64,000 bases of DNA, taken from positions 1-64,000 of IMG/VR virus record IMGVR_UViG_3300049855_000348; one strand, given 5' to 3'. How positions within the stretch are numbered: position 1 is the stretch's first letter; every line of letters starts with the position of its first letter. The notes beneath the pieces are model-generated. The model saw nothing but the letters and a program-made list of their open reading frames with translations, was not told the origin of the DNA and did not search any database. This document shows positions 3,699-48,601 of this stretch, piece after piece. This stretch comes from a virus. Both the position numbers and the translations under genes were made by a program.

Positions 3699-3704
3699 GA
3701 GGTT

Positions 3705-18490: not shown

Positions 18491-18565
18491 CGTCGAGTAT
18501 TTCAGCGGAAGAATATCTGCATGACATGCAGAAGGTCGGTGGTTCGATCCCACCCTCGACGACCA
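18491..18565 (+). tRNA. tRNA-Val(GAC)
   Basis: 75 nt. Acceptor cgtcgag/ctcgacg, T-arm ggtgg-ttcgatc-ccacc, anticodon arm tctgc-atGACat-gcaga, CCA encoded. Confidence 0.7.
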
Positions 18566-18570
18566 AACAA

Positions 18571-18648
18571 TGCGGAGTAACTGGAGATGGAACCAGCCCA
18601 GCCTCATAAGCTGAACAAACGTGTGTTCGAGTCACACCTCCGCAACCA
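18571..18648 (+). tRNA. tRNA-Met or Ile2 (CAT)
   Basis: 78 nt. Acceptor tgcggag/ctccgca, D-stem ctgg/ccag, anticodon loop ctCATaa, T-arm gtgtg-ttcgagt-cacac, CCA encoded. Confidence 0.7.
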
Positions 18649-18650
18649 TT

Positions 18651-18839
18651 TGCAAGGACCTCTCTGCCCACCATCTCGATCCTAAGAAGAAAGAAGACAA
18701 CATCGGTACGATGGTCAGAAGAAGAGTGGCTATCAAAACTTTGGAAATCGAACTGCAAAAGTGTCTCTGCGTGTGTGAGAACTGTCATCGCAAGATCCAT
18801 GCAGGTATCATCAAACCTTTTCTCAGTGCTGGATCATGA
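18651..18839 (+). pseudogene. HNH endonuclease remnant (HNH core only, no credible start)
   Basis: The frame reads ...SAHHLDPKKKEDNIG...CLCVCENCHRKIHAG.., the H-H...N...CxxCH..H core. There is no ATG upstream of the HH, and the ORF-track start lies inside the tRNA-Met. Confidence 0.5.
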
Positions 18840-18886
18840 CCGAACGCCTGTGGTCATTCCCTGGCGGGCACTCGGATTCTTCACAT

Positions 18887-18963
18887 GGTGGTCGTAGCTC
18901 AATGGATAGAGCACTGGACTGTGGCTCCAGCGGCTGTGGGTTCGACTCCCATCGATCACACCA
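18887..18963 (+). tRNA. tRNA-His(GTG)
   Basis: An extra 5' G (G-1), acceptor gtggtcg/cgatcac, D-arm gctc-aatggata-gagc, anticodon loop ctGTGgc, CCA encoded. Confidence 0.8.
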
Positions 18964-19047
18964 GTTCATTGTGCGGAGTACGCGCCTGACCCAGGCAAGA
19001 GGGTTTGCTCTAACCTCCCAGAGAAGAACGGGAGGTTGCTTCGGCAT

Positions 19048-19121
19048 GGCTTGGTCGCTCAACGGCAGGGCGCTGGTTTGAAAAACCAGAGACGAAGGTT
19101 CGACTCCTTCTCAAGCCACCA
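19048..19121 (+). tRNA. tRNA-Phe(GAA)
   Basis: 74 nt. Anticodon arm ctggt-ttGAAaa-accag, T-arm gaagg-ttcgact-ccttc, CCA encoded. Confidence 0.8.
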
Positions 19122-19133
19122 TCTCCTTCTCAC

Positions 19134-19211
19134 GGTCGGTTCACTGCATGGTGCAGTGTGCGCAAGGACAGTCCCCTAAGCACGGCGGTTCGATTCCCCG
19201 GCTGACCACCA
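19134..19211 (+). ncRNA. tRNA-like RNA A: normal acceptor, D-arm, T-loop and CCA but no canonical anticodon arm
   Basis: Acceptor ggtcggt/gctgacc and D-arm actg-catggtg-cagt. The 26 nt at the anticodon position form only gtgc/gcac around an 18-nt loop, gcAAGGacagtCCCCTAAgc. No 5-bp/7-nt arm is found in any register. Confidence 0.5.
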
Positions 19212-19221
19212 TTTTTTTCAT

Positions 19222-19294
19222 CGGCTGGAATAGGTGCGCGTAAGGCATCAGATCCCCTCAAGCGATGGAGGTTCGATTCCTCCCTGGCCGACCA
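19222..19294 (+). ncRNA. tRNA-like RNA B: 7-bp acceptor, T-arm and CCA with a 38-nt non-cloverleaf body
   Basis: Acceptor cggctgg/ctggccg and T-arm ggagg-ttcgatt-cctcc. The body contains cgc-GTAAGGcatcagatCCCCTCAA-gcg. Confidence 0.5.
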
Positions 19295-19407
19295 AGTACG
19301 ACTTCTCGGGTTCCGCAAGGAACGATCGTCCTACTGGCTACAACGGTGAAAATCCGGTGGATGCCAGAGGTGGTGGGATGGCTCACCAAATAAACTGAGA
19401 CTCATAA
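19295..19407 (+). ncRNA. structured spacer RNA (GNRA-capped helices), homologous at its 3' end to 19485..19592
   Basis: Helices gttcc-GCAA-ggaac, ctggc...gccag enclosing ccgg-tgaaaat-ccgg, and ggtg...cacc, followed by AAATAAACTGAGACT. Confidence 0.4.
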
Positions 19408-19484
19408 GCACCGATCGGCTGGTGGAAAAGCTACCTCCCTTTCAAGGAGATTCTTCGCGGGTTCGACTCCCGTTCGGTGTACCA
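19408..19484 (+). tRNA. tRNA-Glu(TTC)
   Basis: 77 nt. Acceptor gcaccga/tcggtgt, anticodon loop ctTTCaa, T-arm gcggg-ttcgact-cccgt, CCA encoded. Confidence 0.75.
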
Positions 19485-19592
19485 ACGACGGAGCACAGTG
19501 ATCGAAAGATCGACCGGCTAGGCAACTCGCAAGAGTGCTCGAAAGGGCGGAGTCTAGTGGGGTGTAAGCACCTCGAATAAACTGTGAGTTAT
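19485..19592 (+). ncRNA. structured spacer RNA (GAAA- and GCAA-capped helices)
   Basis: Helices gatc-GAAA-gatc, actc-GCAA-gagt, gagcac...gtgctc and ggtg-taag-cacc, followed by GAATAAACTGTGAGTT. Confidence 0.4.
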
Positions 19593-19666
19593 GGTCCTTT
19601 CTGTCAGTGGCAGGCAGCCTGATTCTCAGTCAGACAACGTCGGTTCGATTCCGACAAGGACTACCA
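19593..19666 (+). tRNA. tRNA-Glu(CTC)
   Basis: 74 nt. Acceptor ggtcctt/aaggact, D-arm tgtc-agtggca-ggca, anticodon loop ttCTCag, T-arm gtcgg-ttcgatt-ccgac, CCA encoded. Confidence 0.65.
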
Positions 19667-19670
19667 GCAA

Positions 19671-19766
19671 GAGCGGGACACTGGTTCGAGGCCAGTCATC
19701 GCAAGATGTAGCTCAGGGTGAAAACGTAAGGCATCAAACCCCCAAGTAATCCGGAAGAGCACGCTC
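19671..19766 (+). ncRNA. circularly permuted tRNA-like RNA X1 (T-arm, then GCAA-capped acceptor-like hairpin, then D-arm; the termini form the anticodon-like stem)
   Basis: GAGCG-ggac-ACTGG-ttcgagg-CCAGT-CATC-gcaa-GATG-ta-GCTC-[42-nt insert with GTAAGGcatcaaaCCCCCAAG]-GAGC-a-CGCTC. Every helix was read directly. Confidence 0.55.
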
Positions 19767-19771
19767 TATTT

Positions 19772-19849
19772 GTTCCTGAGGACTAACGGCTAGGTCACCT
19801 CCCTGTCACGGAGTCATTCAAGTGGGTTCAACTCCCATCAGGAACGCCA
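19772..19849 (+). tRNA. tRNA-Asp(GTC)
   Basis: 78 nt. Acceptor gttcctg/caggaac, anticodon loop ctGTCac, T-arm gtggg-ttcaact-cccat, CCA encoded. Confidence 0.75.
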
Positions 19850-19853
19850 ACAT

Positions 19854-19927
19854 CCACGCTTCGTCTAATGGCAGGGCACCGATCTGATACGTCGGATACC
19901 AAGGTTCGATTCCTTGAGCGTGGACCA
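19854..19927 (+). tRNA. tRNA-Ile(GAT)
   Basis: 74 nt. Acceptor ccacgct/agcgtgg, anticodon arm ccgat-ctGATac-gtcgg, T-arm caagg-ttcgatt-ccttg, CCA encoded. Confidence 0.75.
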
Positions 19928-19941
19928 CTTCAGTTTCACAT

Positions 19942-20016
19942 TGTGGGATGGCCTATGTGGTAGGGCACCCGGTTGTTACCCGGACTATACTGGTTCGACT
20001 CCAGTTCCCACAGCCA
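19942..20016 (+). tRNA. tRNA-Asn(GTT)
   Basis: 75 nt. Acceptor tgtggga/tcccaca, anticodon loop ttGTTac, T-arm actgg-ttcgact-ccagt, CCA encoded. Confidence 0.75.
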
Positions 20017-20021
20017 CTTTT

Positions 20022-20097
20022 GGGGTCGTAGCTCAATTGGCAGAGCACCTGTTTTGCACGCAGGATGTTAGCGGTTCAAGTCCGCTCGATTCCACCA
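20022..20097 (+). tRNA. tRNA-Ala(TGC)
   Basis: 76 nt. G3:T70 wobble present, anticodon arm cctgt-ttTGCac-gcagg, CCA encoded. Confidence 0.8.
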
Positions 20098-20167
20098 CGC
20101 GGGAGTAATCTGAGAAATCAGAGAGAATTACCAGCCTCACAGCCGGCAAGGAGTAGACTGTGGTTTT

Positions 20168-20243
20168 GGGGAGTTAGCTCATCTGGTAGAGCGCGAGCAT
20201 GGCATGTTCGAGGCGAGGAGTTCAAGTCTCCTACTCTCCACCA
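20168..20243 (+). tRNA. tRNA-Ala(GGC)
   Basis: 76 nt. G3:T70 wobble present, anticodon arm cgagc-atGGCat-gttcg, CCA encoded. Confidence 0.75.
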
Positions 20244-20602
20244 CTTTCAATCATACGGGCGGCGATATCTCAGAAGCGTAAGGATGATCCCCCAAGTTAT
20301 GAGAAAATCCTATGGGGTGAAAGCCCTCAACTGTCCACCACTCGATCGGAACGTCAGTCGCAGCGTAAGGCTTTTATCAAATCCCCAAGCTGTGCAGTAA
20401 CGCAACTGCTGGTGAAAGACCAGCCTGATCACTCTTCAAACGAAACCCTGGCGGTGAAAAACCGCTTCCTCGGCGCATCCCCTACGTTGGTCTACCTCTG
20501 AAGTTTATCGACCCAGGGCTTCGTGTTTCTGCTAGCTAGATTCATGGGTACCATCAGCGACATCGACGATCAACTCTACGTTCAGCACATCAAGTAACGC
20601 AT
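20244..20602 (+). ncRNA. about 360-nt non-tRNA structured region rich in GNRA-capped helices, with two copies of the GTAAGG..CCCCAAG loop motif
   Basis: Helices gggt-GAAA-gccc, gctggt-GAAA-gaccagc, gcggt-gaaaa-accgc, gcagt-aacgca-actgc and cagc-[GTAAGGcttttatcaaatCCCCAA]-gctg. The only ORFs are short and overlap tRNAs. Confidence 0.4.
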
Positions 20603-20677
20603 ACGTCGATAGCTCCAATGTAGAGCGACGGTTTCCAAAACCGTTGGTTGGGGGTTCAAGTCCCTCTCGACGTGCCA
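20603..20677 (+). tRNA. tRNA-Trp(CCA)
   Basis: 75 nt. Acceptor acgtcga/tcgacgt, anticodon arm acggt-ttCCAaa-accgt, CCA end encoded. Confidence 0.8.
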
Positions 20678-20682
20678 TTCAC

Positions 20683-20757
20683 TGAGAGATAGTTCAACGG
20701 TAGAACGCTGCCCTCTGGAGGCAGATGCTAGAGGTTCGAGTCCTCTTCTCTCAACCA
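20683..20757 (+). tRNA. tRNA-Gln(CTG)
   Basis: 75 nt. Anticodon arm ctgcc-ctCTGga-ggcag, T-arm agagg-ttcgagt-cctct, CCA encoded. Confidence 0.8.
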
Positions 20758-20760
20758 CAC

Positions 20761-20835
20761 TCAGGAATAGTTCAACGGTAGAACGCTGACCTTTGGAGTC
20801 AGTTGCTCCAGGTTCGAGTCCTGGTTCCTGAACCA
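20761..20835 (+). tRNA. tRNA-Gln(TTG)
   Basis: 75 nt. Anticodon arm ctgac-ctTTGga-gtcag, T-arm ccagg-ttcgagt-cctgg, CCA encoded. Confidence 0.8.
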
Positions 20836-20843
20836 TTTCACAT

Positions 20844-20922
20844 CTGCGTGTAGCTCAGCCTGGAACAGAGCACTTGCCTTGGGAGCAAGGGGTCGGAGGT
20901 TCAAATCCTCTCACGTAGACCA
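20844..20922 (+). tRNA. tRNA-Pro(TGG)
   Basis: 79 nt. Anticodon arm cttgc-ctTGGga-gcaag, T-arm ggagg-ttcaaat-cctct, CCA encoded. Confidence 0.8.
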
Positions 20923-20927
20923 TTCAT

Positions 20928-21009
20928 GACGGTCGAGTCGAAAGTCGGGCGCTCCGGCATCAGATTGCAACCCTGATGACAGGTGGTTGAACTCCACCGA
21001 TCGTCTCCA
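20928..21009 (+). tRNA. tRNA-Cys(GCA) with an enlarged (about 14-nt) D-loop
   Basis: 82 nt. Acceptor gacggtc/gatcgtc, D-stem gtcg/cggc, anticodon loop ttGCAac with an A:C at the 31:39 pair, T-arm ggtgg-ttgaact-ccacc, CCA encoded. Confidence 0.55.
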
Positions 21010-21014
21010 TTCAC

Positions 21015-21090
21015 GTGTGTGTATCTCAGTGGCTAGAGAGCTTCCTTGCCAAGGAAGAGGTCGCAGGTTCAAGTCCTGTCACACACTCCA
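21015..21090 (+). tRNA. tRNA-Gly(GCC)
   Basis: 76 nt. Anticodon arm cttcc-ttGCCaa-ggaag, CCA encoded. Confidence 0.8.
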
Positions 21091-21092
21091 AC

Positions 21093-21161
21093 AGGGGCAA
21101 ATGCGGGTTCAACTCCCGCTGCGACTTCGGTCGTATCGTCTAACCCGGTAGGACGGCCCCA
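21093..21161 (+). ncRNA. circularly permuted tRNA-like core X2 (T-arm, then UUCG-capped acceptor-like hairpin, then D-arm); further helices extend to about 21282
   Basis: aGGGG-caaat-GCGGG-ttcaact-CCCGC-t-GCGAC-ttcg-GTCGT-at-CGTC-taacccggtag-GACG-g-CCCC. Downstream helices are ccgtgcgg/ccgcacgg and ccgctc/gagcgg. Confidence 0.5.
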
Positions 21162-21282
21162 CCCCGTGCGGATTGGATACCCGCACGGAATCCGAAGTCC
21201 TCAGGTTCAAGCCAAGGCAACCGCTCGCCGAGCGGAATACAAAATGCGGCTAGAGCAGGGGAGCACGAACGTGGCCCCGTTT

Positions 21283-21356
21283 GCCGATGTAGGTCAATGG
21301 TAGATCTGCTGCCTTCCAAGCAGAGGACGCGGGTTCGATTCCCGCCATCGGCTCCA
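21283..21356 (+). tRNA. tRNA-Gly(TCC)
   Basis: 74 nt. Acceptor gccgatg/catcggc, anticodon loop ctTCCaa, T-arm gcggg-ttcgatt-cccgc, CCA encoded. Confidence 0.8.
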
Positions 21357-21360
21357 TCAT

Positions 21361-21436
21361 GTGTGCCTAGCTCAATGGATAGAGCATCTGACTACGGATC
21401 AGAAGGTTGAAGGTTCGAGTCCTTCGGTACACGCCA
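21361..21436 (+). tRNA. tRNA-Arg(ACG)
   Basis: 76 nt. Anticodon arm tctga-ctACGga-tcaga, T-arm gaagg-ttcgagt-ccttc, CCA encoded. Confidence 0.8.
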
Positions 21437-21469
21437 TTGCATAGCGATCTTTTTGGCTAGCATGTAACC

Positions 21470-21997
21470 ATGTCACTCAAAGATGCCCTCTTTCACTTTC
21501 GTGATCTTGGTTACTACGTTGATGATCAAGGAAATGTATTCAACCCAAGAGGAAAGATTCTTCGGTGTTCAACAAACAAAGATGGTTACAAAAGAATTAC
21601 CACAAGAATGAGAAATCATCCAGTTCATGGGGATTGGTGCCCTAAGGTTGAGGTTCACCGTCTTGCCGGTTATCAGAAGTTCGGAGACAAAATCTTCACC
21701 GAAGGACTTGAGATCTGTCACGATGATGGCGATAAGCGAAACAACGCCAAAGACAATCTGCGACTCGATACGCACAAAAGTAATATGATGGATGTTCCTC
21801 AAGAGGTAAGGATCAATAGAGCAAGACGTGCTGGTAGAGAACATGCCAAGCTAACAGATGAGCAGGTTGCTCACATTCGTTCATCTGGCATGACTCTGAA
21901 ACAGATCATGCAAACATACGGTATCAGTAAGTCTGGTGCCTCCTACGTCAGATCAGGAAAGACTTACGCCAGCCCGTGTATCCCCTCGCTTTCCTAA
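21470..21997 (+). CDS. HNH (HNH_3-type) homing endonuclease with a C-terminal HTH
   Basis: 175 aa with ...GYKRITT...EVHRLAGYQKFG...EICHDDGDKRNNAKDNLRLDTHKSN.. and LTDEQVAHIRSSGMTLKQIMQTYGISKSG. The gene is AT-richer than its surroundings and is embedded in the tRNA array. Confidence 0.75.
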   Translation: MSLKDALFHFRDLGYYVDDQGNVFNPRGKILRCSTNKDGYKRITTRMRNHPVHGDWCPKVEVHRLAGYQKFGDKIFTEGLEICHDDGDKRNNAKDNLRLDTHKSNMMDVPQEVRINRARRAGREHAKLTDEQVAHIRSSGMTLKQIMQTYGISKSGASYVRSGKTYASPCIPSLS

Positions 21998-22051
21998 AGC
22001 GGTGAAAGGGTAACTGGACACATGCAGGTTCAAATCCTGCCTCGGGTACCA
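21972..22051 (+). ncRNA. atypical tRNA-like RNA E1 (possible tRNA-Arg(CCT) lacking a D-arm)
   Basis: Acceptor gcccgtg/ctcgggt (one T:T mismatch), then 7 nt, then arm tcgct-ttCCTaa-agcgg, then 21 nt, then T-arm gcagg-ttcaaat-cctgc and A-CCA. Its 5' end overlaps the HNH gene's 3' end. Confidence 0.4.
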
Positions 22052-22054
22052 CAT

Positions 22055-22132
22055 CGGGGTCCTAGTACGGGAGTGTCTGCATACCATTCGGTCACTACAG
22101 CCTCGGCGGTTCAATCCCGCCAACCTCGACCA
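22055..22132 (+). ncRNA. tRNA-like RNA with acceptor, T-arm and CCA but a long hairpin in place of the D and anticodon arms
   Basis: Acceptor cggggtc/aacctcg (6 of 7 pairs) and T-arm ggcgg-ttcaatc-ccgcc. The body forms agtgtctg-cataccatt-cggtcact, an 8-bp stem with a T:T mismatch and a 9-nt loop. Confidence 0.4.
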
Positions 22133-22135
22133 CAT

Positions 22136-22211
22136 GCGATCGTATTTCAATTGGAAGAACACCACCCTCCGAAGGTGGAAGGTGCAGGTTCGAGTCCTGC
22201 CGATCGCGCCA
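22136..22211 (+). tRNA. tRNA-Arg(CCG)
   Basis: 76 nt. Anticodon arm ccacc-ctCCGaa-ggtgg, T-arm gcagg-ttcgagt-cctgc, CCA encoded. Confidence 0.8.
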
Positions 22212-22214
22212 TCT

Positions 22215-22290
22215 GGTGACGTAGCTCAATGGACAGAGCTTCCAGCTTCTACCTGGATGGTTGGAGGTTCGAGTCCTCCCGTCATCGCCA
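22215..22290 (+). tRNA. tRNA-Arg(TCT)
   Basis: 76 nt. Anticodon arm tccag-ctTCTac-ctgga, T-arm ggagg-ttcgagt-cctcc, CCA encoded. Confidence 0.8.
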
Positions 22291-22294
22291 TCAT

Positions 22295-22369
22295 GCTGCC
22301 ATAGCCGAGTGGTAAGGCACTTCATTCGTAACGAAGAGACCGGGTGTTCGATTCACCCTGGCAGCACCA
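22295..22369 (+). tRNA. tRNA-Thr(CGT)
   Basis: 75 nt. Acceptor gctgcca/tggcagc, anticodon loop ttCGTaa, T-arm gggtg-ttcgatt-caccc, CCA encoded. Confidence 0.7.
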
Positions 22370-22373
22370 TCAC

Positions 22374-22449
22374 GCCCCCATAGCTCAGTTGGTAGAGCAA
22401 CAGTTTTGTAAACTGTAGGTCGTCGGTTCGATCCCGACTGGTGGCTCCA
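22374..22449 (+). tRNA. tRNA-Thr(TGT)
   Basis: 76 nt. Anticodon arm acagt-ttTGTaa-actgt, T-arm gtcgg-ttcgatc-ccgac, CCA encoded. Confidence 0.8.
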
Positions 22450-22456
22450 TTTTCAC

Positions 22457-22530
22457 GCTGCTATAGTTCAGTGGTAAAACACGTCCTTGGTAAGGACGAG
22501 CCCCAGGTTCAATTCCTGGTAGCAGCACCA
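22457..22530 (+). tRNA. tRNA-Thr(GGT)
   Basis: 74 nt. Anticodon arm cgtcc-ttGGTaa-ggacg, T-arm ccagg-ttcaatt-cctgg, CCA encoded. Confidence 0.8.
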
Positions 22531-22535
22531 TTCAT

Positions 22536-22611
22536 CCATCAGTAGCGTAATTGGCAGCGCAGCGGGTTTTTACCCCGTGGGTTGTGAGTTCGACTCTCAC
22601 CTGATGGACCA
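22536..22611 (+). tRNA. tRNA-Lys(TTT)
   Basis: 76 nt. Anticodon arm gcggg-ttTTTac-cccgt, T-arm gtgag-ttcgact-ctcac, CCA encoded. Confidence 0.8.
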
Positions 22612-22617
22612 TCGCAT

Positions 22618-22693
22618 GCATCCATAGCTCAACTGGCAGAGCACTCGGTTCTTACCCAAGGGGTTGGAGGTTCAAATCCTCCTGGATGCACCA
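22618..22693 (+). tRNA. tRNA-Lys(CTT)
   Basis: 76 nt. Acceptor gcatcca/tggatgc, anticodon loop ttCTTac, T-arm ggagg-ttcaaat-cctcc, CCA encoded. Confidence 0.75.
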
Positions 22694-22707
22694 TCATTAC
22701 ATAAGTC

Positions 22708-22941
22708 ATGCCAGCATGGAAATGGATGATCCTGAAGTTCTGTACCAGAGCGCATTTCATGCGGCTCATAGCAACCTTGATCATCCTCATCGCAGGCTTT
22801 CAATCTCTCTACTACCAGAAGATTGAAGACACGTGGTTGATCCTGGTTGGTGCAGTGATGAACCACTACTTCAACCACAAAGAAGCTGCGAACGTCACGG
22901 AAGAAGACAAGAATCCGGACGACGAATGCAAGGTCGGTTAG
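22708..22941 (+). CDS. small two-TM membrane protein (hypothetical) inside the tRNA array
   Basis: 77-aa ORF with two hydrophobic segments (LIATLIILIAGF and WLILVGAVM). Its 3' end overlaps the next tRNA by 10 nt. Confidence 0.4.
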   Translation: MPAWKWMILKFCTRAHFMRLIATLIILIAGFQSLYYQKIEDTWLILVGAVMNHYFNHKEAANVTEEDKNPDDECKVG

Positions 22942-23006
22942 TTCAGCGGTAGAACGCTTCTCTTACACGGAAGATGTCGGGGGTTCGATCCCCTCACCGA
23001 CTACCA
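22932..23006 (+). tRNA. tRNA-Val(TAC)
   Basis: 75 nt. Acceptor ggtcggt/accgact, anticodon arm cttct-ctTACac-ggaag, T-arm ggggg-ttcgatc-ccctc, CCA encoded. Confidence 0.8.
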
Positions 23007-23011
23007 CTTGC

Positions 23012-23091
23012 CGGTCTGTATCGGCTCGGTCTTATAAGCCGTCGAAACCGTAATTGGTTACATGAGGGTTCGACTCCCTCCAGACCGACCA
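23012..23091 (+). ncRNA. atypical tRNA-like RNA E2 (possible tRNA-Ile(TAT) lacking a D-arm); same architecture as E1
   Basis: Perfect acceptor cggtctg/cagaccg, then 8 nt, then arm cggt-ctTATaa-gccg, then 22 nt with an aacc/ggtt hairpin, then T-arm gaggg-ttcgact-ccctc and A-CCA. It lies immediately upstream of an HNH gene. Confidence 0.4.
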
Positions 23092-23126
23092 CAAGGCTTC
23101 CACGATTCCCCTCCAAGGAGAACGCC

Positions 23127-39878: not shown

Positions 39879-39967
39879 TGGCGGAAGTGGCACGAATCGA
39901 ACGTGCAAGACCCGTGAAGGTCTGTTGAGGTTCAAGCTCAGTCCCCTCGCCTATAGGGAGCACTTCC
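39879..39967 (-). tRNA. tRNA-Ser(TGA), class II
   Basis: 89 nt. Acceptor ggaagtg/cacttcc, anticodon loop ctTGAac, long variable arm agacc-ttcac-gggtct, T-arm gcacg-ttcgatt-cgtgc, CCA encoded. Confidence 0.75.
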
Positions 39968-39972
39968 ATGAA

Positions 39973-40064
39973 TGGCGGATACGGCAGGATTTGAACCTGC
40001 GGGTGACTTGCGCCACCTCCTAGTTTCGAGCTAGGTGCGATAAGCCGGGCTCTGCCACGTATCC
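39973..40064 (-). tRNA. tRNA-Ser(CGA), class II
   Basis: 92 nt. Anticodon arm cctag-ctCGAaa-ctagg, long variable arm, CCA encoded. Confidence 0.75.
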
Positions 40065-40069
40065 ATGAA

Positions 40070-40162
40070 TGGCGGATTGCTAGGGAGTCGGACCCTCAAC
40101 GTGTTTCCACGTTTCATCGCTTTCCAGGCGAGTACGGTTAGCCACCACCGTCAACACAATCC
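40070..40162 (-). tRNA. tRNA-Ser(GGA), class II
   Basis: 93 nt. Anticodon loop ctGGAaa, variable arm aacgtg-gaaa-cacgtt, T-loop tccgact, CCA encoded. Confidence 0.65.
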
Positions 40163-40167
40163 ATGAA

Positions 40168-40259
40168 TGGCGGAACGGGTGAGATTTGAACTCACGGGTG
40201 ACTTTCGCCACCTCTTCCTTAGCAAGGAAGTGCAATAGGCCAGACTCTGCCACCGTTCC
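40168..40259 (-). tRNA. tRNA-Ser(GCT), class II
   Basis: 92 nt. Anticodon arm cttcc-ttGCTaa-ggaag, long variable arm, CCA encoded. Confidence 0.75.
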
Positions 40260-40263
40260 ATGA

Positions 40264-40347
40264 TGGTCTCTGAGGTGGGACTCGAACCCACAAAGCTGCG
40301 ATGTTTAGGACCGCAAGGTGTGCCATTCCCTATGAAGCCACTCAGAG
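40264..40347 (-). tRNA. tRNA-Leu(TAA)-like, atypical (C at position 33, long D region, short variable loop)
   Basis: 84 nt. Acceptor ctctgag/ctcagag, anticodon arm gcggt-ccTAAac-atcgc, T-arm gtggg-ttcgagt-cccac, A73, CCA encoded. Confidence 0.5.
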
Positions 40348-40351
40348 AAGT

Positions 40352-40429
40352 TGGTGTCCCATGCAGGAGTCGAACCTGCAAAGATCTGCATTTTGAATGC
40401 AGCGCGTCTGCCAATTGCGCCAATGGGAC
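40352..40429 (-). tRNA. tRNA-Leu(CAA) with a short (6-nt) variable loop
   Basis: 78 nt. Leu-type D-arm tggcgcaattggcagacgcg, anticodon arm ctgca-ttCAAaa-tgcag, A73, CCA encoded. Confidence 0.65.
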
Positions 40430-40430
40430 G

Positions 40431-40507
40431 TGGTATCCACGAAGAGATTTGAACTCTTACTGTTCGGTGCCTAAGACCGATGCCTCTGCCGGTTGGGCTA
40501 CGTGGAC
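40431..40507 (-). tRNA. tRNA-Leu(TAG) with a short (5-nt) variable loop
   Basis: 77 nt. Anticodon arm tcggt-ctTAGgc-accga, T-arm aagag-ttcaaat-ctctt, A73, CCA encoded. Confidence 0.65.
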
Positions 40508-40513
40508 GTGAAA

Positions 40514-40599
40514 TGGTGGGATAGGCTGGAGTCGAACCAACAGTGGCGGTGAAGCGTCACGTTTACAGCGTGGTGAGCCTTCCAATGCTCAACTATCCC
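40514..40599 (-). tRNA. tRNA-Tyr(GTA), class II
   Basis: 86 nt. Acceptor gggatag/ctatccc, D-arm gagc/gctc, anticodon loop ctGTAaa, 15-nt variable arm, CCA encoded. Confidence 0.75.
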
Positions 40600-40609
40600 A
40601 GATGAAAAA

Positions 40610-40688
40610 TGGTACCCGTGACAGGAGTCGAACCTGCAATTTTACTACCACCTCAAGGTAGCGCGTCTGCCAATTTCGCCACACGGGC
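40610..40688 (-). tRNA. tRNA-Leu(GAG) with a short (7-nt) variable loop
   Basis: 79 nt. D-arm tggcgaaattggcagacgcg, anticodon arm ctacc-ttGAGgt-ggtag, A73, CCA encoded. Confidence 0.65.
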
Positions 40689-40691
40689 ATG

Positions 40692-40769
40692 TGGTACCGG
40701 GGGCGGGAGTCGAACCCGCAAAGAACATGGACCTGAACCATGCGCGTCTGCCTGTTTCGCCACCCCGGC
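40692..40769 (-). tRNA. tRNA-Leu(CAG) with a short (6-nt) variable loop
   Basis: 78 nt. D-arm tggcgaaacaggcagacgcg, anticodon arm catgg-ttCAGgt-ccatg, A73, CCA encoded. Confidence 0.65.
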
Positions 40770-40800: not shown

Positions 40801-40834
40801 AAAAGAAAGAACCCCGGCTTTTTGGGCCGGGGTT
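40801..40834 (-). terminator. rho-independent terminator between the 40983..41564 gene and the minus-strand tRNA array
   Basis: Minus strand reads AACCCCGGC-ccaaaaa-GCCGGGGTT followed by CTTTCTTTT. Confidence 0.7.
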
Positions 40835-40982
40835 CGAGAGTTCGCTTTGGGCTTTTGTGCCTACTCCAGCGTGCTCCGAATCCCGGTCTCCGAATAGGAG
40901 AGGGACAACGACAGCAGACTGAGTGAGAGAGAACGGCGCATTGCGCTGCTCCTCATAGCGAGACTACTCCAGGTGGCAAGAA

Positions 40983-41564
40983 CTATTTCTTGTGGGTGCC
41001 CTCCACGCCACGAGCGACACGGTCCATGGTGCGCTTGTGCAGCCAGAGGCGAGCAGTGTCGAGATGGTTCAGTGCGACAGCATTGTCACGGCAGGAAAAT
41101 TCTCCCTTCATGAAGCCCTCCAAACGATCGATGAGGATGGCGAGCAGGGCTTCGTGGCTGTTGCCGTTGTAGCCGGCTTCTTTCACTGGGCCGTTCTGGA
41201 AGGTGATGCGCTGGACTTTGAAGGGGGTTTTGACTTTGAACCCAAGGGAACCCATGATTGGGATCTTCGCAAAGTTGAAATCGTCCAGAATAGTGAGGGT
41301 GGTTTCTTCGTTGATGTCGAATTCGGTTCGACTCGGGCCATCCTCTTCGTTGGAATCCAACAGAGCTACAACATCTTCCCATTCTTTGTGTTGTTTCCGA
41401 ATCACCGGATCTTCAGAATCCGGTTCAGGTTCGCCATAGGGGATCAACACGACATAGTCGTGGCAGGCACCACCACTTCCCGGCTTGTCCAACACGAAGA
41501 TGCGCAAAGCCTCGTTGAGGCCGTTGACGCGGTGGGCGGTGAGTTCACGGATATTAGGACGCAT
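40983..41564 (-). CDS. hypothetical protein (conserved-looking C-terminal helical region ending ...RGVEGTHKK)
   Basis: 193-aa ORF with GGAGAA upstream of the ATG. Confidence 0.55.
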   Translation of the reverse strand: MRPNIRELTAHRVNGLNEALRIFVLDKPGSGGACHDYVVLIPYGEPEPDSEDPVIRKQHKEWEDVVALLDSNEEDGPSRTEFDINEETTLTILDDFNFAKIPIMGSLGFKVKTPFKVQRITFQNGPVKEAGYNGNSHEALLAILIDRLEGFMKGEFSCRDNAVALNHLDTARLWLHKRTMDRVARGVEGTHKK

Positions 41565-43592: not shown

Positions 43593-44246
43593 ATGGACTT
43601 CATCGGCTTCGTCAATCGTCTGAACGAAGGTTTCGTCAGCGTCCCCAAGCAGCCATGGAAGACCAAGGAAGAAGCCCTGGCCCTGGCTGAGAAGGCGCTG
43701 CCGGCCTTCCGTCGTATCCTGATGAAGGCTGCGCCGGCTGATTCCGTGGTGAAGTACGCCATCAAGCCATCAGAGTCGATTGATGACAAACTCCAACGCT
43801 GGAAGCCTGCCGGTCGTGGTATCGACACCATGTTCGACATGCTGCGTGGTGCCATCCTGGTCCGTGACGGTGAGGAGATCCAGGACACCATTCATCGCCT
43901 GAGCCGTGGGCCAGTGGTCGCCAAGTTCGAGCACAAGGATGAGCCGAAGGATGCTCTGGGCTACTACGGCAGCTACCACATCGACCTGTACCTGCCTGAG
44001 TTCAAGGTGGTGGCTGAGGTCCAGGTGATGACCAAGAAACTCTGGGCGTACAAGAAAGAGGCGCACCGGATCTACAAGGAGCAGCGCGGTAAACCTCAGA
44101 TCGACCCTGCTGCTGCGAGCAAGTCACGGGAACTCTACCGTGTCGGCAACACGCCGAAGAAACTTACTGCGCAGAAGCCTGAGAAAGCCGATCGCGCAAT
44201 GCTGCAAGCTGCCCGTAGAGGCGAGCACCCGGACCTATCTGATTGA
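43593..44246 (+). CDS. RelA/SpoT-type small alarmone synthetase-like nucleotidyltransferase (SAS/toxSAS-like)
   Basis: 217 aa. It carries KPSESIDDKLQR, DMLRGAILV, GYYGSYHIDL and AEVQVMTKKLWAYKKEAHRIYK, in the order of the synthetase-domain motifs. Confidence 0.65.
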   Translation: MDFIGFVNRLNEGFVSVPKQPWKTKEEALALAEKALPAFRRILMKAAPADSVVKYAIKPSESIDDKLQRWKPAGRGIDTMFDMLRGAILVRDGEEIQDTIHRLSRGPVVAKFEHKDEPKDALGYYGSYHIDLYLPEFKVVAEVQVMTKKLWAYKKEAHRIYKEQRGKPQIDPAAASKSRELYRVGNTPKKLTAQKPEKADRAMLQAARRGEHPDLSD

Positions 44247-44757
44247 TGCCAGCCTTGCGGGATGCCAGCAGCAAAGCCTCGGCACCTTGAAGGTAGTTCT
44301 TCACCCATTCTGGCTTCATGGTCTTCGACCCGTCCAGTAGGTTGTCGTAGCGATCGGCGAGCTTGATCAGCACCGCATCCAACGACTTGCCCGAGAAGCC
44401 AGCGATGTAGGCGTTCTTGTCCTTGGTCCCCGGAGGCTTGGTCAGTTCACGCACCAGCTTTTGCACCCGTTCAGGGAACTCGGAGATGTCAGCCTTGGTG
44501 TCTTCGAGCACGTCGTGGAGGTAAGCCGCTGCCAGCACCTCTTTGTCCACCACACCAGCGTTCTGGAGGATCTTCACTACCCGTTCAGGGTGGACGATGT
44601 AGGGGTTCTTCCCATCCTTCCGGATCTGACCTTCGTGGGCGATGGTGGCGAATGAGCGAGCGTGTTCCAGCAGGTCGCGTTGACCATTGCCAGCGATGTG
44701 GTCCATCACATCGTGGTCATCGTTCGAGAGGGCTTCGCAGAGGATCTTCTTTTTCAT
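44164..44757 (-). CDS. HD-domain (p)ppGpp hydrolase-like protein (small alarmone hydrolase, Mesh1/SpoT-type)
   Basis: 197 aa with ATIAHEGQIRKDGKNPYIVHPERV and AAYLHDVLEDT. Its 3' end overlaps the convergent synthetase gene by 83 nt. Confidence 0.7.
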   Translation of the reverse strand: MKKKILCEALSNDDHDVMDHIAGNGQRDLLEHARSFATIAHEGQIRKDGKNPYIVHPERVVKILQNAGVVDKEVLAAAYLHDVLEDTKADISEFPERVQKLVRELTKPPGTKDKNAYIAGFSGKSLDAVLIKLADRYDNLLDGSKTMKPEWVKNYLQGAEALLLASRKAGINQIGPGARLYGQLAALRDRLSQASAQ

Positions 44758-44811: not shown

Positions 44812-44838
44812 TTGCGTCTACCAAAATAGCGATAGAGT
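44812..44838 (+). promoter_or_regulatory. weaker divergent promoter for dnaE (TTGCGT-N15-TAGAGT)
   Basis: The ATG at 44846 is 8 nt after the -10. There is no Shine-Dalgarno. Confidence 0.4.
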
Positions 44839-44845
44839 GATCGCC

Positions 44846-47800
44846 ATGCCGACCCTTTCCTTGCATTCCCATACTGTCTACTCCCAACGTGACTCGATCG
44901 TAAAGCCTGATGCAATAGCTACCAAGATCAAAGCCAACGGCGGGACGCACTACGCCGTTACCGACCACGGCACTGCCCAGGGCTGGCTGGCCGTCCGTGA
45001 TGCCTGCAAGAAGGCCAAGTTGATCCCGATCTATGGGGTCGAGCTTTACGTCAACGACTTCATCCTCGTTTTCAAGGAGATCCAACGACTCCGTGATGCC
45101 GCCCCCAAGAAGGAAGCCCCACAGGTCGTATTGCAGGCGATCAGGGACAAGATCCTGCCTCTGATGTCCCCAGCACAGGCCACCTACTTCACGTCGAACC
45201 TGGACGATCCCAAGGACCCTGTCGCAACCGCCAAGCAACTGATGATGCGCCTGGGCTACGGCTACGAGCATCTGGTGGCTGTGGCCGTCACCGCCCAAGG
45301 CCGGGAGAACTTGATCCGCCTACACAACAAGGGGCAGACCGACGGCAACTACTTCAAGCCGCAGGTGACCACCGACCAATGCCTTGCCGCTGCTGAGGGC
45401 ATCATTTGGACGACCGCCTGCATGGGTGGTCCGATCGCCAAACGTTTCCGCTACGACCCGACTGGCCAGGAGGCGCTGAATTACCTCAACCGCTGGCAGG
45501 CACACAAGGCGAACTTCTACCTGGAGGTCCAGCCGCTCGACCTACTCGACCAACGCCGGAACAACAAGCGCCTGATCGCTGTCTCCAAGGTGACCGGCTT
45601 CCCGCTGGTCCTGTCACAGGACAACCACCACCTGAACGAAGAGGACTGGGTTGCTCACCGTGCGCTGATGCTCTCTCAGAACGACCGTACGATCGAACAG
45701 ATCGAAGAGACCTATGCCTACCAGGGGAGCCTTTTCACCTTCACCGAACTGAAGCGCAAGCTCGGCGTCTCCACCACGTGGCAAGCGCAGGAGATCATCG
45801 AGAACGAAAAGATCGAAGTGAGGATCCCGGCTGGTCACCACTACGGGGATGTGAAGCTCCACTGGCGTACCAATGACGATGTCCGCAAACAGTGTGAGAC
45901 CACCAACCCTGAGTTGATGCCGATCATCGACGAATGCTTCGCCACCACCGATCGACTCTGCCAGGAGATCAAAGAGATCCCCTGGTCAACCAAGCATCGC
46001 CTGACGCACTATGACGACGCCAGGGCACAAGCGTTGGCAATCTGCCATCAGCGTCTGAAGGACCTTGGCTTCGATCGTGAGACCGTCAACGATGGTACTG
46101 TGGTTGTCACTGAAGGTGAAAAGCCGTCAGAGATCAAGGCCAAGTATCTCGCTTGGTTGGAGAAGGAAGACAAGGTTATCACCGCCTGTGGATTCTGGGA
46201 TTACATCTGGACGCTCTATCGAGTGACCAAGGCTGTGCAGGACGAAGGTATCCCAGTCGGCTACGCTCGTGGCTCTGGCGGTGGTTGTCTCGTGATGTTC
46301 CTCCTTGGTATCATCCGTGTGAACCCAGTGAAGTATGGTCTGTACTTCGAGCGATTCCTGAACCCGGCTCGTCTCGGTTTGGATCCGAAAACCTTGAAGC
46401 GTGTGAAGGAGATGGCGTCCTGCCCTGACGCTGACCTGGACTTCTCATCGATCAGTCGCAAGCGGGTCATCGAGATCACCGAACAGATGTTCGGCAAGGA
46501 GTTCGTGGTTCCTGTTGGAACCGTCGGCGAAGCGAAACTCAAGACCGCCATGGCCGATCTGTGCCGCGTACTCAAGATCACGCAGGCTACCTACATGCCG
46601 GTCTCGAAGGAACTGCCTGAAGACATCAATGGCGTCATGACCTTCGAGGATGCGATGAAGGTGCCGGCATTCGCCGAGTTCATCGCCAAGCATGAACTCC
46701 TGTCCAAGCTGTTGGCTCCGCTCATCGGTGTGATCCGTTCTACTGGTCAACACGCTGGCGGTGTCTGCATCGCCGACGTTCCGGTTGCCAATGCTGTGCC
46801 GGTGATCCGTGCTGGTGCCAAGGATGGTGGCAACATTGTCACCGGCTTCGGTGAGTCTGGTGCTGAGCGTGCTCTTGAATCCATCGGCTTCGTGAAGTTC
46901 GACTTCTTGGCTACTGATACTGTCGACCATGTCTCTTTGTGTGCCCGTTCGCTCTACGAAGAACATCTGGCCAACGGCGGTCAGCCGTGGGTGAAGCCTG
47001 GGGAAATTCTGCTCTACCCTGAGCAAATCCCACACTTCACCGAGAACGATCCCAACGTGATGAAGGCGATCTTCCATACCGGCAACACCGACGGCATCTT
47101 CCAGATGGAAGAACAGATCGGTAAGCAGATGGTGCAGTTGGTGAAGCCAGACACCGTCGATGAAATCTCCGACATCAGCACCATGATCCGTCCTGGTTGT
47201 TTGCAGGCGCATTGTACGTGGTTCACCAATGCCACCGGTGCGGTTGAGAACAAAGTCGGCAGTGGTCTCCACTTCGCTTACGCTGCTCGTAAGTTCGAGC
47301 GTGAACTCAACCCACCACCAGATCTACCTCAGGAAATCTTGGAGGTCTTGAAGCCAACGCACTACTGCTGCATCTACCAGGAACAGATGATGTTCCTGAT
47401 TGAGATCGTCACTGGTGGCAAGATGTCACTCGGTGAAGGTGACATCTACCGTCGTGCCGTCGAGCACTCGGCGAAGGGTGTTCCGGCAGCAATCGAGACG
47501 CTGGCCAAGATGGAAGGCGAGATGAAGGCTGCCGGTGCCTACTCACCGGACATCGTCGAGACTGTCTGCACGATCATCAAGGGTGGTGCGGCCTACTCAT
47601 TCAATAAAGCACACTCGCTGTCCTACTCGCTCTTCAGCTACGGTCAGGCGTGGTTCAAGCATTACTACCCGCACATCTTCCTGGCCAGTCACGTGAGTCT
47701 GCTCGCAGCGAAGAACAAGCTGGAGAAGGCTCACAAGATCATCAACAACGGTCGCTCGATGGGTATCGAGATCAAAGCACCACACGTCCTCCACTCGAAA

Positions 47801-48601
47801 GAGAAGGCAACGTGGGGCGCAGACAAGAAGACAATCTTCCTTCCGTTCACCACCGTCAAAGGTGTGAAGGATGAAACCGCTCTGGCAATCCCTAGACTCG
47901 CTCAGGGCTGCACCACCGTTCTCGATTTCATGCTCAAGGCTCGGAAGGATCCGGCGATCAAGAAGAATCATCTGATCGACCTCGCTCGCATCGGCGGCTT
48001 CGATGGTATGGACAATGTTCCGCGCCTCAAAACGGTTGCTGCGATCACTTACTGTCTTGCTCGTGTGACGGCTAAACAAAGCGATCAGATCTTCACCGAG
48101 TTCTGGAATCAGGCTCTGGCATTCACGTGCCTTGGCGAGATCACCAACGAACGAAAGTCACAGATCGAAGTGGAGGTGTTCGGTTCGTTCATCAACGAGT
48201 CACCACTCGACCGTATGCTGCCATGGCTCCACGAGAACGGCTGGCAACCCATGTCCCAGATCGTGCCAGAGAAGGATCAGGAATTCCCGGTGTTCTTCCT
48301 CACCACCGGTGTGACGAAGAAGGTCCACAAGACCGGCAACAGCAAGGGTAAGGAATGGCTCAAGCTGACATGCTGGGATGGTGAGGGCGTCTGCGAACTC
48401 AACATCTGGGCTCATGACCTCCAGGGAACTCCCGAGGAGGGCATCGTCGGCTACCACGGAATCATCAAGCCGAACCAAGTCTATTTGGCCATCATCCAAG
48501 CCGACGGGGAGCGCCCGGTCTCCTTGGCTCGACGCAAGGTCTACAACGCACGGGTTCCTGAGATCCGGACGACATTGGCGATCAAAAACCTGGGTAGCTA
48601 G
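44846..48601 (+). CDS. dnaE: DNA polymerase III alpha subunit (DnaE-type)
   Basis: The PHP N-terminus is MPTLSLHSHTVYSQRDS. GSGGGCLVMFLLGIIRVNPVKYGLYFERFLNP and FNKAHSLSYSLFSYGQAWFKHYYP match conserved Pol IIIa motifs. The ATG at 44846 is preferred over the track's GTG at 44837. Confidence 0.9.
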   Translation: MPTLSLHSHTVYSQRDSIVKPDAIATKIKANGGTHYAVTDHGTAQGWLAVRDACKKAKLIPIYGVELYVNDFILVFKEIQRLRDAAPKKEAPQVVLQAIRDKILPLMSPAQATYFTSNLDDPKDPVATAKQLMMRLGYGYEHLVAVAVTAQGRENLIRLHNKGQTDGNYFKPQVTTDQCLAAAEGIIWTTACMGGPIAKRFRYDPTGQEALNYLNRWQAHKANFYLEVQPLDLLDQRRNNKRLIAVSKVTGFPLVLSQDNHHLNEEDWVAHRALMLSQNDRTIEQIEETYAYQGSLFTFTELKRKLGVSTTWQAQEIIENEKIEVRIPAGHHYGDVKLHWRTNDDVRKQCETTNPELMPIIDECFATTDRLCQEIKEIPWSTKHRLTHYDDARAQALAICHQRLKDLGFDRETVNDGTVVVTEGEKPSEIKAKYLAWLEKEDKVITACGFWDYIWTLYRVTKAVQDEGIPVGYARGSGGGCLVMFLLGIIRVNPVKYGLYFERFLNPARLGLDPKTLKRVKEMASCPDADLDFSSISRKRVIEITEQMFGKEFVVPVGTVGEAKLKTAMADLCRVLKITQATYMPVSKELPEDINGVMTFEDAMKVPAFAEFIAKHELLSKLLAPLIGVIRSTGQHAGGVCIADVPVANAVPVIRAGAKDGGNIVTGFGESGAERALESIGFVKFDFLATDTVDHVSLCARSLYEEHLANGGQPWVKPGEILLYPEQIPHFTENDPNVMKAIFHTGNTDGIFQMEEQIGKQMVQLVKPDTVDEISDISTMIRPGCLQAHCTWFTNATGAVENKVGSGLHFAYAARKFERELNPPPDLPQEILEVLKPTHYCCIYQEQMMFLIEIVTGGKMSLGEGDIYRRAVEHSAKGVPAAIETLAKMEGEMKAAGAYSPDIVETVCTIIKGGAAYSFNKAHSLSYSLFSYGQAWFKHYYPHIFLASHVSLLAAKNKLEKAHKIINNGRSMGIEIKAPHVLHSKEKATWGADKKTIFLPFTTVKGVKDETALAIPRLAQGCTTVLDFMLKARKDPAIKKNHLIDLARIGGFDGMDNVPRLKTVAAITYCLARVTAKQSDQIFTEFWNQALAFTCLGEITNERKSQIEVEVFGSFINESPLDRMLPWLHENGWQPMSQIVPEKDQEFPVFFLTTGVTKKVHKTGNSKGKEWLKLTCWDGEGVCELNIWAHDLQGTPEEGIVGYHGIIKPNQVYLAIIQADGERPVSLARRKVYNARVPEIRTTLAIKNLGS

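Follow-up and report, generated by a model that had tools for sequence, protein, structure and literature searches.

The stretch of DNA analysed here, referred to as the window, comprises 64,000 nucleotides (nt) of an IMG/VR virus record (IMGVR_UViG_3300049855_000348, positions 1 to 64,000). It is part of the genome of an uncultured large phage, corresponds to a 79-kb Logan contig and carries genes for a polymerase of the DnaE type (44837-48601), for a tape-measure-like protein and for a baseplate wedge protein. Default ARAGORN predicts 33 tRNA genes in the window, 25 on the plus strand and 8 on the minus strand. The minus-strand array (39879-40769) reads, in the order of transcription, Leu-CAG, Leu-GAG, Tyr-GTA, Leu-TAG, Leu-CAA, Ser-GCT, Ser-CGA and Ser-TGA; relaxed ARAGORN adds Ser-GGA (40070-40162) and an 84-nt tRNA-like element (40264-40347). 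Its four tRNA-Leu genes, which have short variable loops in place of the long variable arm, are the main subject here. No close genome relative was found among 50,697 deposited phage genomes with the array region, the tape-measure-like open reading frame (ORF) and DnaE as queries, and the best DnaE match in these genomes is only about 25% identical. The four tRNA-Leu genes are as follows.

40692..40769, minus strand: tRNA-Leu(CAG), 78 nt with CCA; variable loop TTCTTT (6 nt); D-arm TGGCGAAACAGGCAGACGC; A73; found by ARAGORN; Rfam 49.5 bits over the full length.
40610..40688, minus strand: tRNA-Leu(GAG), 79 nt; variable loop TAAAATT (7 nt); D-arm TGGCGAAATTGGCAGACGC; A73; found by ARAGORN; Rfam 50.6 bits.
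40431..40507, minus strand: tRNA-Leu(TAG), 77 nt; variable loop ACAGT (5 nt); divergent D-arm TAGCCCAACCGGCAGAGGC; A73; found by ARAGORN; Rfam 55.8 bits.
40352..40429, minus strand: tRNA-Leu(CAA), 78 nt; variable loop ATCTTT (6 nt); D-arm TGGCGCAATTGGCAGACGC; A37; A73; found by ARAGORN; Rfam 54.1 bits.

The Rfam tRNA model covers each of the four genes over its whole length (49.5-55.8 bits), and each has a 7-base-pair (bp) acceptor stem and an encoded CCA. The class II shape is defined by a variable arm of more than 10 nt; in these genes the anticodon stem and the T-stem are only 5-7 nt apart. The sequence-only reading, an earlier note by a model on this DNA, had named wrong gene boundaries as a way in which an arm might have been overlooked. 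Because the genes of the minus array are only 1-10 nt apart, misplaced boundaries cannot hide a tRNA-Leu arm, and the full-length Rfam alignments agree with this.

The leucine identity features considered here are the set established for the E. coli leucyl-tRNA synthetase (LeuRS) (PMC9976931). U8, A14, A15, U48 (the last base of the variable loop), G18G19, A20a and A73 are present in all four genes. A 3-bp D-stem and an 11-nt D-loop are likewise common to the four, including Leu-TAG despite its divergent D-arm sequence; direct reading of the sequence gives the D-loops as AAATTGGCAGA, AAACAGGCAGA, CAATTGGCAGA and CAACCGGCAGA. The T-loops are canonical (TTCGACT or TTCAAAT), and position 37 fits the anticodon as in genuine leucine tRNAs, with G37 in the three NAG genes and A37 in Leu-CAA. 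In a comparison with a labelled phage tRNA set, Leu-CAA, Leu-GAG and Leu-CAG have their nearest D-arm neighbours among long-arm tRNA-Leu, and the D-arm region of Leu-GAG is identical to one of them at 20 of 20 positions. The leucine-type D-arm sequence, which had been ascribed to four tRNA-Leu genes, is thus present in three, and Leu-TAG has the same architecture with another sequence.

The remaining members of the minus array are the following.

40514..40599, minus strand: tRNA-Tyr(GTA), 86 nt, long variable arm; found by ARAGORN; Rfam tRNA 42.7 bits.
40264..40347, minus strand: 84-nt tRNA-like element ("Leu-TAA"); Rfam tRNA 28.1 bits against a cut-off of 29; found by relaxed ARAGORN only.
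40168..40259, minus strand: tRNA-Ser(GCT), 92 nt, long variable arm; found by ARAGORN; Rfam 52.2 bits.
40070..40162, minus strand: probable tRNA-Ser(GGA), 93 nt, long arm; found by relaxed ARAGORN only; cloverleaf as minimum-free-energy fold; no Rfam match at E<=1.
39973..40064, minus strand: tRNA-Ser(CGA), 92 nt, long variable arm; found by ARAGORN; Rfam 46.5 bits.
39879..39967, minus strand: tRNA-Ser(TGA), 89 nt, long variable arm; found by ARAGORN; best Rfam clan match tRNA-Sec at 38.5 bits.

The tRNA-Ser and tRNA-Tyr genes of the array retain long variable arms (genes of 89-93 nt for Ser and 86 nt for Tyr), as had been stated from the sequence and is borne out by ARAGORN and Rfam. The preference of Rfam for tRNA-Sec in the case of Ser(TGA) is due to the long arm. 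The T-loop of Ser-GGA is deviant (TCCGACT, with C at position 55). A T-loop that starts with TCC (C55) rather than TTC is found in one tRNA-Ser of each of two related phages, namely Ser-GGA in the window and Ser-CGA (6829-6920, minus strand) in the related contig L244 described below.

The 84-nt element has a canonical acceptor stem, T-arm, A73 and CCA, and its D-arm architecture is leucine-like with C at position 14. A TAA anticodon depends on an anticodon stem lengthened to 7 bp and on the loop CCUAAAC, with C33, as in the best fold; direct reading of the sequence also gives additional nucleotides ahead of that stem, and relaxed ARAGORN labels the element Lys-CTT with a poor fold. It thus lacks U33, A14 and a 5-bp anticodon stem and scores below the RF00005 gathering threshold. 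No counterpart exists in L244, the one relative found to carry the array, TTA is only 4 of the 700 leucine codons counted in the window, and the element is probably a decaying tRNA-Leu paralogue. The sequence-only reading had described the array as five tRNA-Leu, one tRNA-Tyr and four tRNA-Ser, with no long arm in any of the five tRNA-Leu and A73 in all of them. Eight of these genes are found by default ARAGORN and Ser-GGA only at the relaxed threshold, whereas the supposed Leu-TAA is this non-canonical element. Absence of the long arm accordingly stands for four genes (77-79 nt, loops of 5-7 nt, by ARAGORN and Rfam) and not for the fifth, which is not a canonical tRNA, and A73 is indeed present in the four genes and in the element.

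Short-armed tRNA-Leu genes are widespread in viral contigs. A search pattern that fixes part of the leucine D-arm and T-arm at a spacing too short for a long arm matches at least 120 loci in IMG/VR viral contigs, and nearly every listed match is a tRNA-Leu with the anticodon TAG, TAA, CAA, CAG, GAG or AAG. The lengths of tRNA-Leu genes in the listed loci are bimodal (ARAGORN, n=216), with 160 genes of 73-81 nt and 56 of 82-99 nt. Among the listed loci with short tRNA-Leu, tRNA-Ser is long in 75 of 79 cases and tRNA-Tyr in 39 of 40, and short and long tRNA-Leu occur together in 43 of the 120 listed loci. The short type is defined here by a gene length of 73-81 nt, a variable loop of 4-8 nt, a leucine anticodon, A73 and a class II-type D-arm. 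The four window genes, at 77-79 nt with loops of 5-7 nt, belong to this type, and the tRNA-Ser and tRNA-Tyr genes of their locus are long. The reference set consists of 96 distinct IMG/VR sequences and 85 distinct bacterial-genome sequences that fit the definition.

The 96 distinct short IMG/VR sequences have A73 in 95, A14 in 92, A15 in 94 and U48 in 92 cases, at positions that were not fixed by the search pattern, and the long-arm tRNA-Leu genes in the same loci show a like pattern at these four positions. Over 214 distinct short tRNA-Leu sequences, the anticodon stem is paired at 86-100% by position (94% or more at all but one of its five pairs), and each of the four Watson-Crick combinations is used. 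Such pairing is strong compensatory covariation, and the short type is clearly under selection. An unbiased IMG/VR sample selected by the D-arm only contains 5 short and 64 long tRNA-Leu genes, so that the short form is a minority overall in IMG/VR; many of the long genes in this sample may be tRNA genes of the host located where prophage contigs end. Recent deletion of the arm in place was considered as a source of the short genes and left no sign, the best identity between short and long tRNA-Leu within one locus being 76% (median 62%) with the variable region excluded. The 120 listed loci also contain five tRNAs labelled Pyl by ARAGORN (anticodon CTA), some with leucine-type D-arms, which may be amber-suppressor tRNAs derived from tRNA-Leu.

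The array itself is conserved in one relative, the 191-kb Joint Genome Institute contig L244 (3300071638, Ga0620602_000113), whose DnaE is 76% identical to that of the window. A tRNA array lies at the same position in L244, downstream of a homologous gene and a terminator-like hairpin as in the window, in the order Leu-GAG, Tyr-GTA, Leu-CAG, Leu-CAA and then four tRNA-Ser genes. All three of its tRNA-Leu genes are short and have A73, A14, A15 and U48. A DnaE-based search of IMG/VR for related loci found no relative. Four more distant contigs (L245-L248, DnaE 53-59% identical) have no tRNA array near DnaE and are therefore silent on the conservation of the array. The minus array restricted to Leu, Tyr and Ser is an inherited module specific to this lineage, in which one related phage or more shares it. 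That Leu, Ser and Tyr genes generally tend to cluster in arrays was considered and rejected: across 94 distinct arrays, adjacencies of different class II isotypes number 55 against 62 expected and are not enriched (z about -1), and a contiguous class II block occurs in 6 of the 94.

These results also bear on whether the short genes act as tRNAs at all. They could be pseudogenes, tRNAs of switched identity, or tRNA-like decoys, primers or processing signals, and would then not be leucine acceptors in translation. The degenerate look of the adjoining 84-nt element, several further non-canonical tRNA-like elements in the window and the ambiguous D-arm sequence of Leu-TAG are in keeping with such a role. 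However, the cloverleaves are complete with an encoded CCA, the base at position 37 matches the anticodon (G37 with NAG, A37 with CAA), and the anticodons suit the main leucine codons of the phage. Furthermore, no fewer than 92 of the 96 distinct relatives keep each of A73, A14, A15 and U48, compensatory covariation is seen in the anticodon stem, and the same genes are conserved in L244 at a DnaE identity of 76%. A role outside leucine acceptance is therefore very improbable.

The short form is also encoded by cells. The same spacing pattern matches at least 120 loci in bacterial genome contigs, and 76 of the listed matches are tRNA-Leu genes of 73-80 nt. Part of the listed matches lie in dense arrays, for example in Acidobacteriota with 29-34 tRNAs in 8 kb, and the Acidobacteriota arrays open with a contiguous Leu-Leu-Ser-Ser-Ser-Ser-Tyr block that includes short tRNA-Leu. 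The Frankiales-type Leu-CAA (75-77 nt, 5-nt variable loop, A73, D-arm including GGCAGACGC) is the sole tRNA in its locus, and its pattern-bounded core is identical across many genomes. Its neighbours, in conserved synteny, are a pyruvate kinase gene and a gene for an ANTAR response regulator, as judged by comparing one locus (L126, 4609-4684) as the reference with 13 others (L130, L145, L150, L167, L168, L171, L184, L188, L192, L203-L205 and L227). Because these flanks represent conserved housekeeping synteny, the Frankiales-type gene is vertically inherited and chromosomal; although encoded by a cell, it departs from the rule that places tRNA-Leu in class II.

In Mycobacterium tuberculosis, "several" leucine tRNAs are described as long-armed (PMC7450476), and Leu-2, Leu-3 and Leu-5 are named as such (PMC11541572). 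Because only these three are named, two of the five M. tuberculosis tRNA-Leu appear to be without a long arm. A short variable loop in the Leu-TAG of a mycobacterial tRNA cluster has been remarked on by Behra et al. (PMC6582537). Full-text searches of the literature found no paper devoted to short-armed phage tRNA-Leu and passing remarks only. The expectation of the sequence-only reading that class-I-shaped tRNA-Leu is unusual outside organelles is thus refuted by the loci in IMG/VR and in bacterial contigs (at least 120 in each), by cultured phages, by the Frankiales-type gene and by M. tuberculosis.

Several further RNAs were observed among the bacterial matches. In Streptomyces tibetensis (L181), a long-armed tRNA-Leu(TAA) gene (3266-3350, 85 nt) and a short-armed one (3668-3744, 77 nt) lie about 400 nt from each other, and a lone short Leu-TAA occurs in other Streptomyces contigs. 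In Hymenobacter and other Bacteroidota (L141, L154, L174, L176, L194, L195, L221, L224 and L236), a conserved 77-nt RNA has a leucine-type D-arm (TGGCGGAACTGGCAGACGC) but an unusual sequence around the anticodon (CCTATCTCG), ends in CAGCA and is labelled Asp(ATC) by ARAGORN. Kitasatospora, Streptomyces, Lentzea and Stackebrandtia (L124, L132, L135, L138, L140, L153, L178, L180 and L202) carry tRNA families with many anticodons on a near-identical scaffold, GTAGCGCAGAGGCAGACGC...GCCGGTTCGAATCCGGC; among them are a Ser(GCT) of 75 nt and a Tyr(GTA) of 76 nt, both without a long arm.

The four window genes are probably working phage-encoded leucine tRNAs of this widespread short-variable-arm type. 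Gene structure, conservation, covariation and distribution are matters of observation, and the steps to charging by LeuRS and to use in translation go beyond them. The genes would have originated from an ordinary class II bacterial tRNA-Leu in which only the arm was reduced, to a loop of 5-7 nt, because the class II D-arm (3-bp stem, 11-nt loop, unpaired 13:22) is retained together with A73, U8-A14, A15-U48, G18G19 and A20a. The host LeuRS presumably charges them, because bacterial LeuRS recognises its tRNA by the discriminator base and the tertiary core and not by the arm. The E. coli enzyme needs A73, A15-U48, G18G19 and A20a, does not use the arm as an identity element and charges arm-less variants (PMC9976931). 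With the Aquifex enzyme, deletion of the arm chiefly lowers affinity, whereas deletion of U48 abolishes charging (PMC2377443). The strict retention of U48, A15 and A73 would be explained by this dependence of LeuRS on A73 and the tertiary core.

Loss of the arm may thus be a tolerated state that is open to leucine alone among the class II families. tRNA-Ser and tRNA-Tyr would keep their arms because SerRS and TyrRS use the long arm in recognition. Bacterial TyrRS contacts the long arm of tRNA-Tyr, as seen in TyrRS-tRNA structures. The long arm is also important for the binding of tRNA-Ser to SerRS (PMC11541572). In 16 ORFs of the window (n=700 leucine codons), CTG (294) and CTC (240) are foremost and TTA occurs 4 times; the window tRNA-Leu genes may well be used for these two dominant codons.

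Several points weigh against this explanation. The properties of LeuRS are taken from E. coli and Aquifex and may not be those of the host enzyme. The affinity of the Aquifex enzyme drops without the arm (PMC2377443), so that the loss may be costly, and such a cost would argue for a compensating benefit, none of which is named in the explanation. The D-arm sequence of Leu-TAG is not clearly leucine-like in the labelled-set comparison. Moreover, a standard review assigns the long arm to tRNA-Leu in all organisms except animal mitochondria (PMC9976931); because arm-less tRNA-Leu is limited there to animal mitochondria, the short form is not the textbook state. The short-armed tRNA-Leu is nevertheless a real but ordinary feature, of a kind that is already known and under-described.

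Two features lie directly upstream of the array.

40809..40835, minus strand: terminator-like hairpin that separates the upstream gene from the first tRNA of the array; L244 has a homologous hairpin in the equivalent position.
40983..41564, minus strand: 193-amino-acid (aa) gene directly upstream of the array; phrog_2428 at 1.8e-28; precomputed Pfam hit to PF24729, also for the L244 counterpart.

Ahead of the minus array, no promoter matching the sigma-70 consensus was found. The PF24729 hit of the 193-aa gene was not reproduced in a separate hmmscan search of Pfam, and it is possible, if uncertain, that its product is an Acb2/Tad1-type anti-defence sponge domain. A gene with a weak RelA/SpoT-like synthetase domain (43593-44246, plus strand, E 8.6e-5, below the cut-off) and an HD_4 hydrolase gene (44164-44757, minus strand, E 4.6e-12) lie near the array. 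Together with the 193-aa gene they hint at an anti-defence or alarmone-related neighbourhood.

Arm loss might be an adaptive counter-defence, in which host effectors that take the long variable arm of class II tRNAs as a handle or as the site of cleavage disable the host tRNA-Leu, the arm-less phage replacements escape, and the array serves as a class II replacement cassette. Effectors of a comparable kind are known for the other two families. PtuAB of Retron-Eco7 and Septu cuts tRNA-Tyr in its variable loop, and infection is rescued by a phage tRNA-Tyr whose loop differs (PMC12673091, PMC13096335). MenT3 needs the arm of tRNA-Ser (PMC11541572), and the abortive-infection toxin AbiEii likely favours class II tRNAs (bioRxiv 10.64898/2026.01.19.700257). 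The sequence-only reading had raised altered recognition by nucleases and by modification enzymes, and an escape from either is conceivable in principle, since variable-loop-directed effectors are known. The restriction of the minus array to exactly the class II amino acids, conserved in L244, the precomputed Acb2/Tad1 hairpin hit for the upstream gene in both phages, and the HD_4 hydrolase and weak RelA/SpoT-like genes close by fit in with this idea.

However, no effector that acts on the arm of tRNA-Leu is reported in the papers found, the Acb2/Tad1 hit is not reproduced by hmmscan, and Ser and Tyr, which are the known targets, retain their arms in the window array. Short tRNA-Leu is a chromosomal housekeeping gene in Actinomycetota, which fits tolerance better than an arms race; short and long tRNA-Leu coexist in 43 of the 120 listed viral loci; and the adjacency of class II tRNAs over the 94 arrays (z about -1) gives no enrichment. 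An adaptive origin of the arm loss is hence unlikely. A more specific version is also unlikely: the minus array would be a dedicated counter-defence cassette that resupplies the three long-arm families next to a possible anti-defence gene, with leucine made immune by deletion of the arm since only LeuRS ignores it. PtuAB-type nucleases and DUF1814 nucleotidyltransferase toxins are examples of the arm-directed effectors that such a cassette would counter. If it were true that arm loss guards against arm-directed toxins, phage tRNAs would have a new way of escaping defence.

The other tRNA genes of the window lie on the plus strand.

18491-23006, plus strand: tRNA array of 25 default ARAGORN genes and Asp-GTC; Leu, Ser and Tyr all absent.
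19772-19849, plus strand: Asp-GTC, found by Rfam and relaxed ARAGORN only.

None of the 25 default ARAGORN genes is for Leu, Ser or Tyr, just as had been noted from the sequence. The two arrays had also been thought to cover all 20 amino acids; they cover 19, because tRNA-Cys was not found in the window by any tool used, and Asp is found by Rfam and relaxed ARAGORN only.

An HNH endonuclease gene (HNH_3, E 6.8e-10; 21470-21997, plus strand) lies within the plus-strand array. HNH endonuclease genes are likewise found inside the tRNA regions of phage T5 and Gordonia phage Sixama. Two unassigned stretches of the array (19122-19407 and 20244-20602) contain four copies of the motif GCG[C/T]AAGG...TCCCC..AAG, at 19160-19262 and 20276-20389 on the plus strand. 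Every copy makes up the loop of a short hairpin, and a T-arm-like GGTTCGATTCC and a CCA end come after two of them; the elements look like tRNA-like RNAs missed by every tool. Two other non-canonical tRNA-like elements on the plus strand have good acceptor and T arms and a CCA end. One (23010-23092) has a CTTATAA loop with the anticodon TAT and possibly a long variable arm, and scores 26.6 bits with Rfam tRNA-Sec, under the cut-off. The other (21972-22051) has the same 5' acceptor-stem strand as Leu-GAG and scores 28 bits with Rfam tRNA, also under the cut-off. A sub-threshold Rfam match to YrlA (Y RNA-like; 27.3 bits against a cut-off of 69) lies at 21102-21154 on the plus strand, in a 190-nt gap between two tRNA-Gly genes.

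With the window, a further uncultured large phage joins a class of short tRNA-Leu that is already present in GenBank annotation and in passing remarks in papers. In loci with short tRNA-Leu, leucine loses the arm and serine and tyrosine almost never do, and this asymmetry agrees with known synthetase recognition. It constitutes a clean natural experiment on which tRNA features may change, and the pattern merits a systematic census. The cultured phages with which the window can be compared are listed below, with gene lengths from their deposited annotation.

Gordonia phage Sixama (MN484601): Leu 76, 74 and 75 nt; Tyr 88 nt; Ser 85 nt.
Pseudomonas phage Boevelstad (PQ464592): Leu 74 and 74 nt; Tyr not in the region; Ser 87 nt.
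Pectobacterium phage POP15 (MT560059): Leu 77 nt; Tyr 88 nt; Ser 95 nt.
Phage T5: Leu 85 nt (long arm); Tyr 88 nt; Ser 89-94 nt.

Sixama, Boevelstad and POP15 represent three unrelated phage groups, and the window phage is unrelated to them at the genome level. Like the window, they place short tRNA-Leu genes of 74-77 nt beside tRNA-Ser and/or tRNA-Tyr genes of 85-95 nt in one cluster, and the window Leu-CAA matches a Boevelstad tRNA-Leu by BLAST at 84% over 96% of the query. However, genes of other isotypes are interspersed with their Leu, Ser and Tyr genes, whereas in the window these three form an array of their own on the opposite strand. Three of the four window tRNA-Leu have variable loops of 6-7 nt, whereas 5 nt is the commonest length in the short type. 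T5 resembles the window in having a tRNA-Leu in a large phage tRNA region, but its Leu(UAG) of 85 nt keeps the long arm. The tRNA-Leu of phage T4 is long-armed too.

The mobile tRNA array units of mycobacteria and other bacteria are dense and include short tRNA-Leu, as in the window, and their tRNAs are structurally unlike the chromosomal copies. These units occur in bacterial contigs or plasmids as a single array on one strand, whereas the window has two strand-segregated phage arrays. The Frankiales-type Leu-CAA is cell-encoded, single-copy and embedded in housekeeping synteny, in contrast to the phage-borne genes in the array of the window. The class I tRNA-Leu of animal mitochondria shares with the window genes a short variable loop and leucylation through A73 and the tertiary core (PMC9976931), the latter being predicted for the window. 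The mitochondrial tRNAs are, however, of unrelated origin and have reduced, A/U-rich and often unstable cores, whereas the window genes have the full bacterial leucine D-arm, a canonical T-arm and G18G19. The phage gene context, the canonical G18G19 and the canonical T-loops accordingly place the four window genes outside the organellar class I group.

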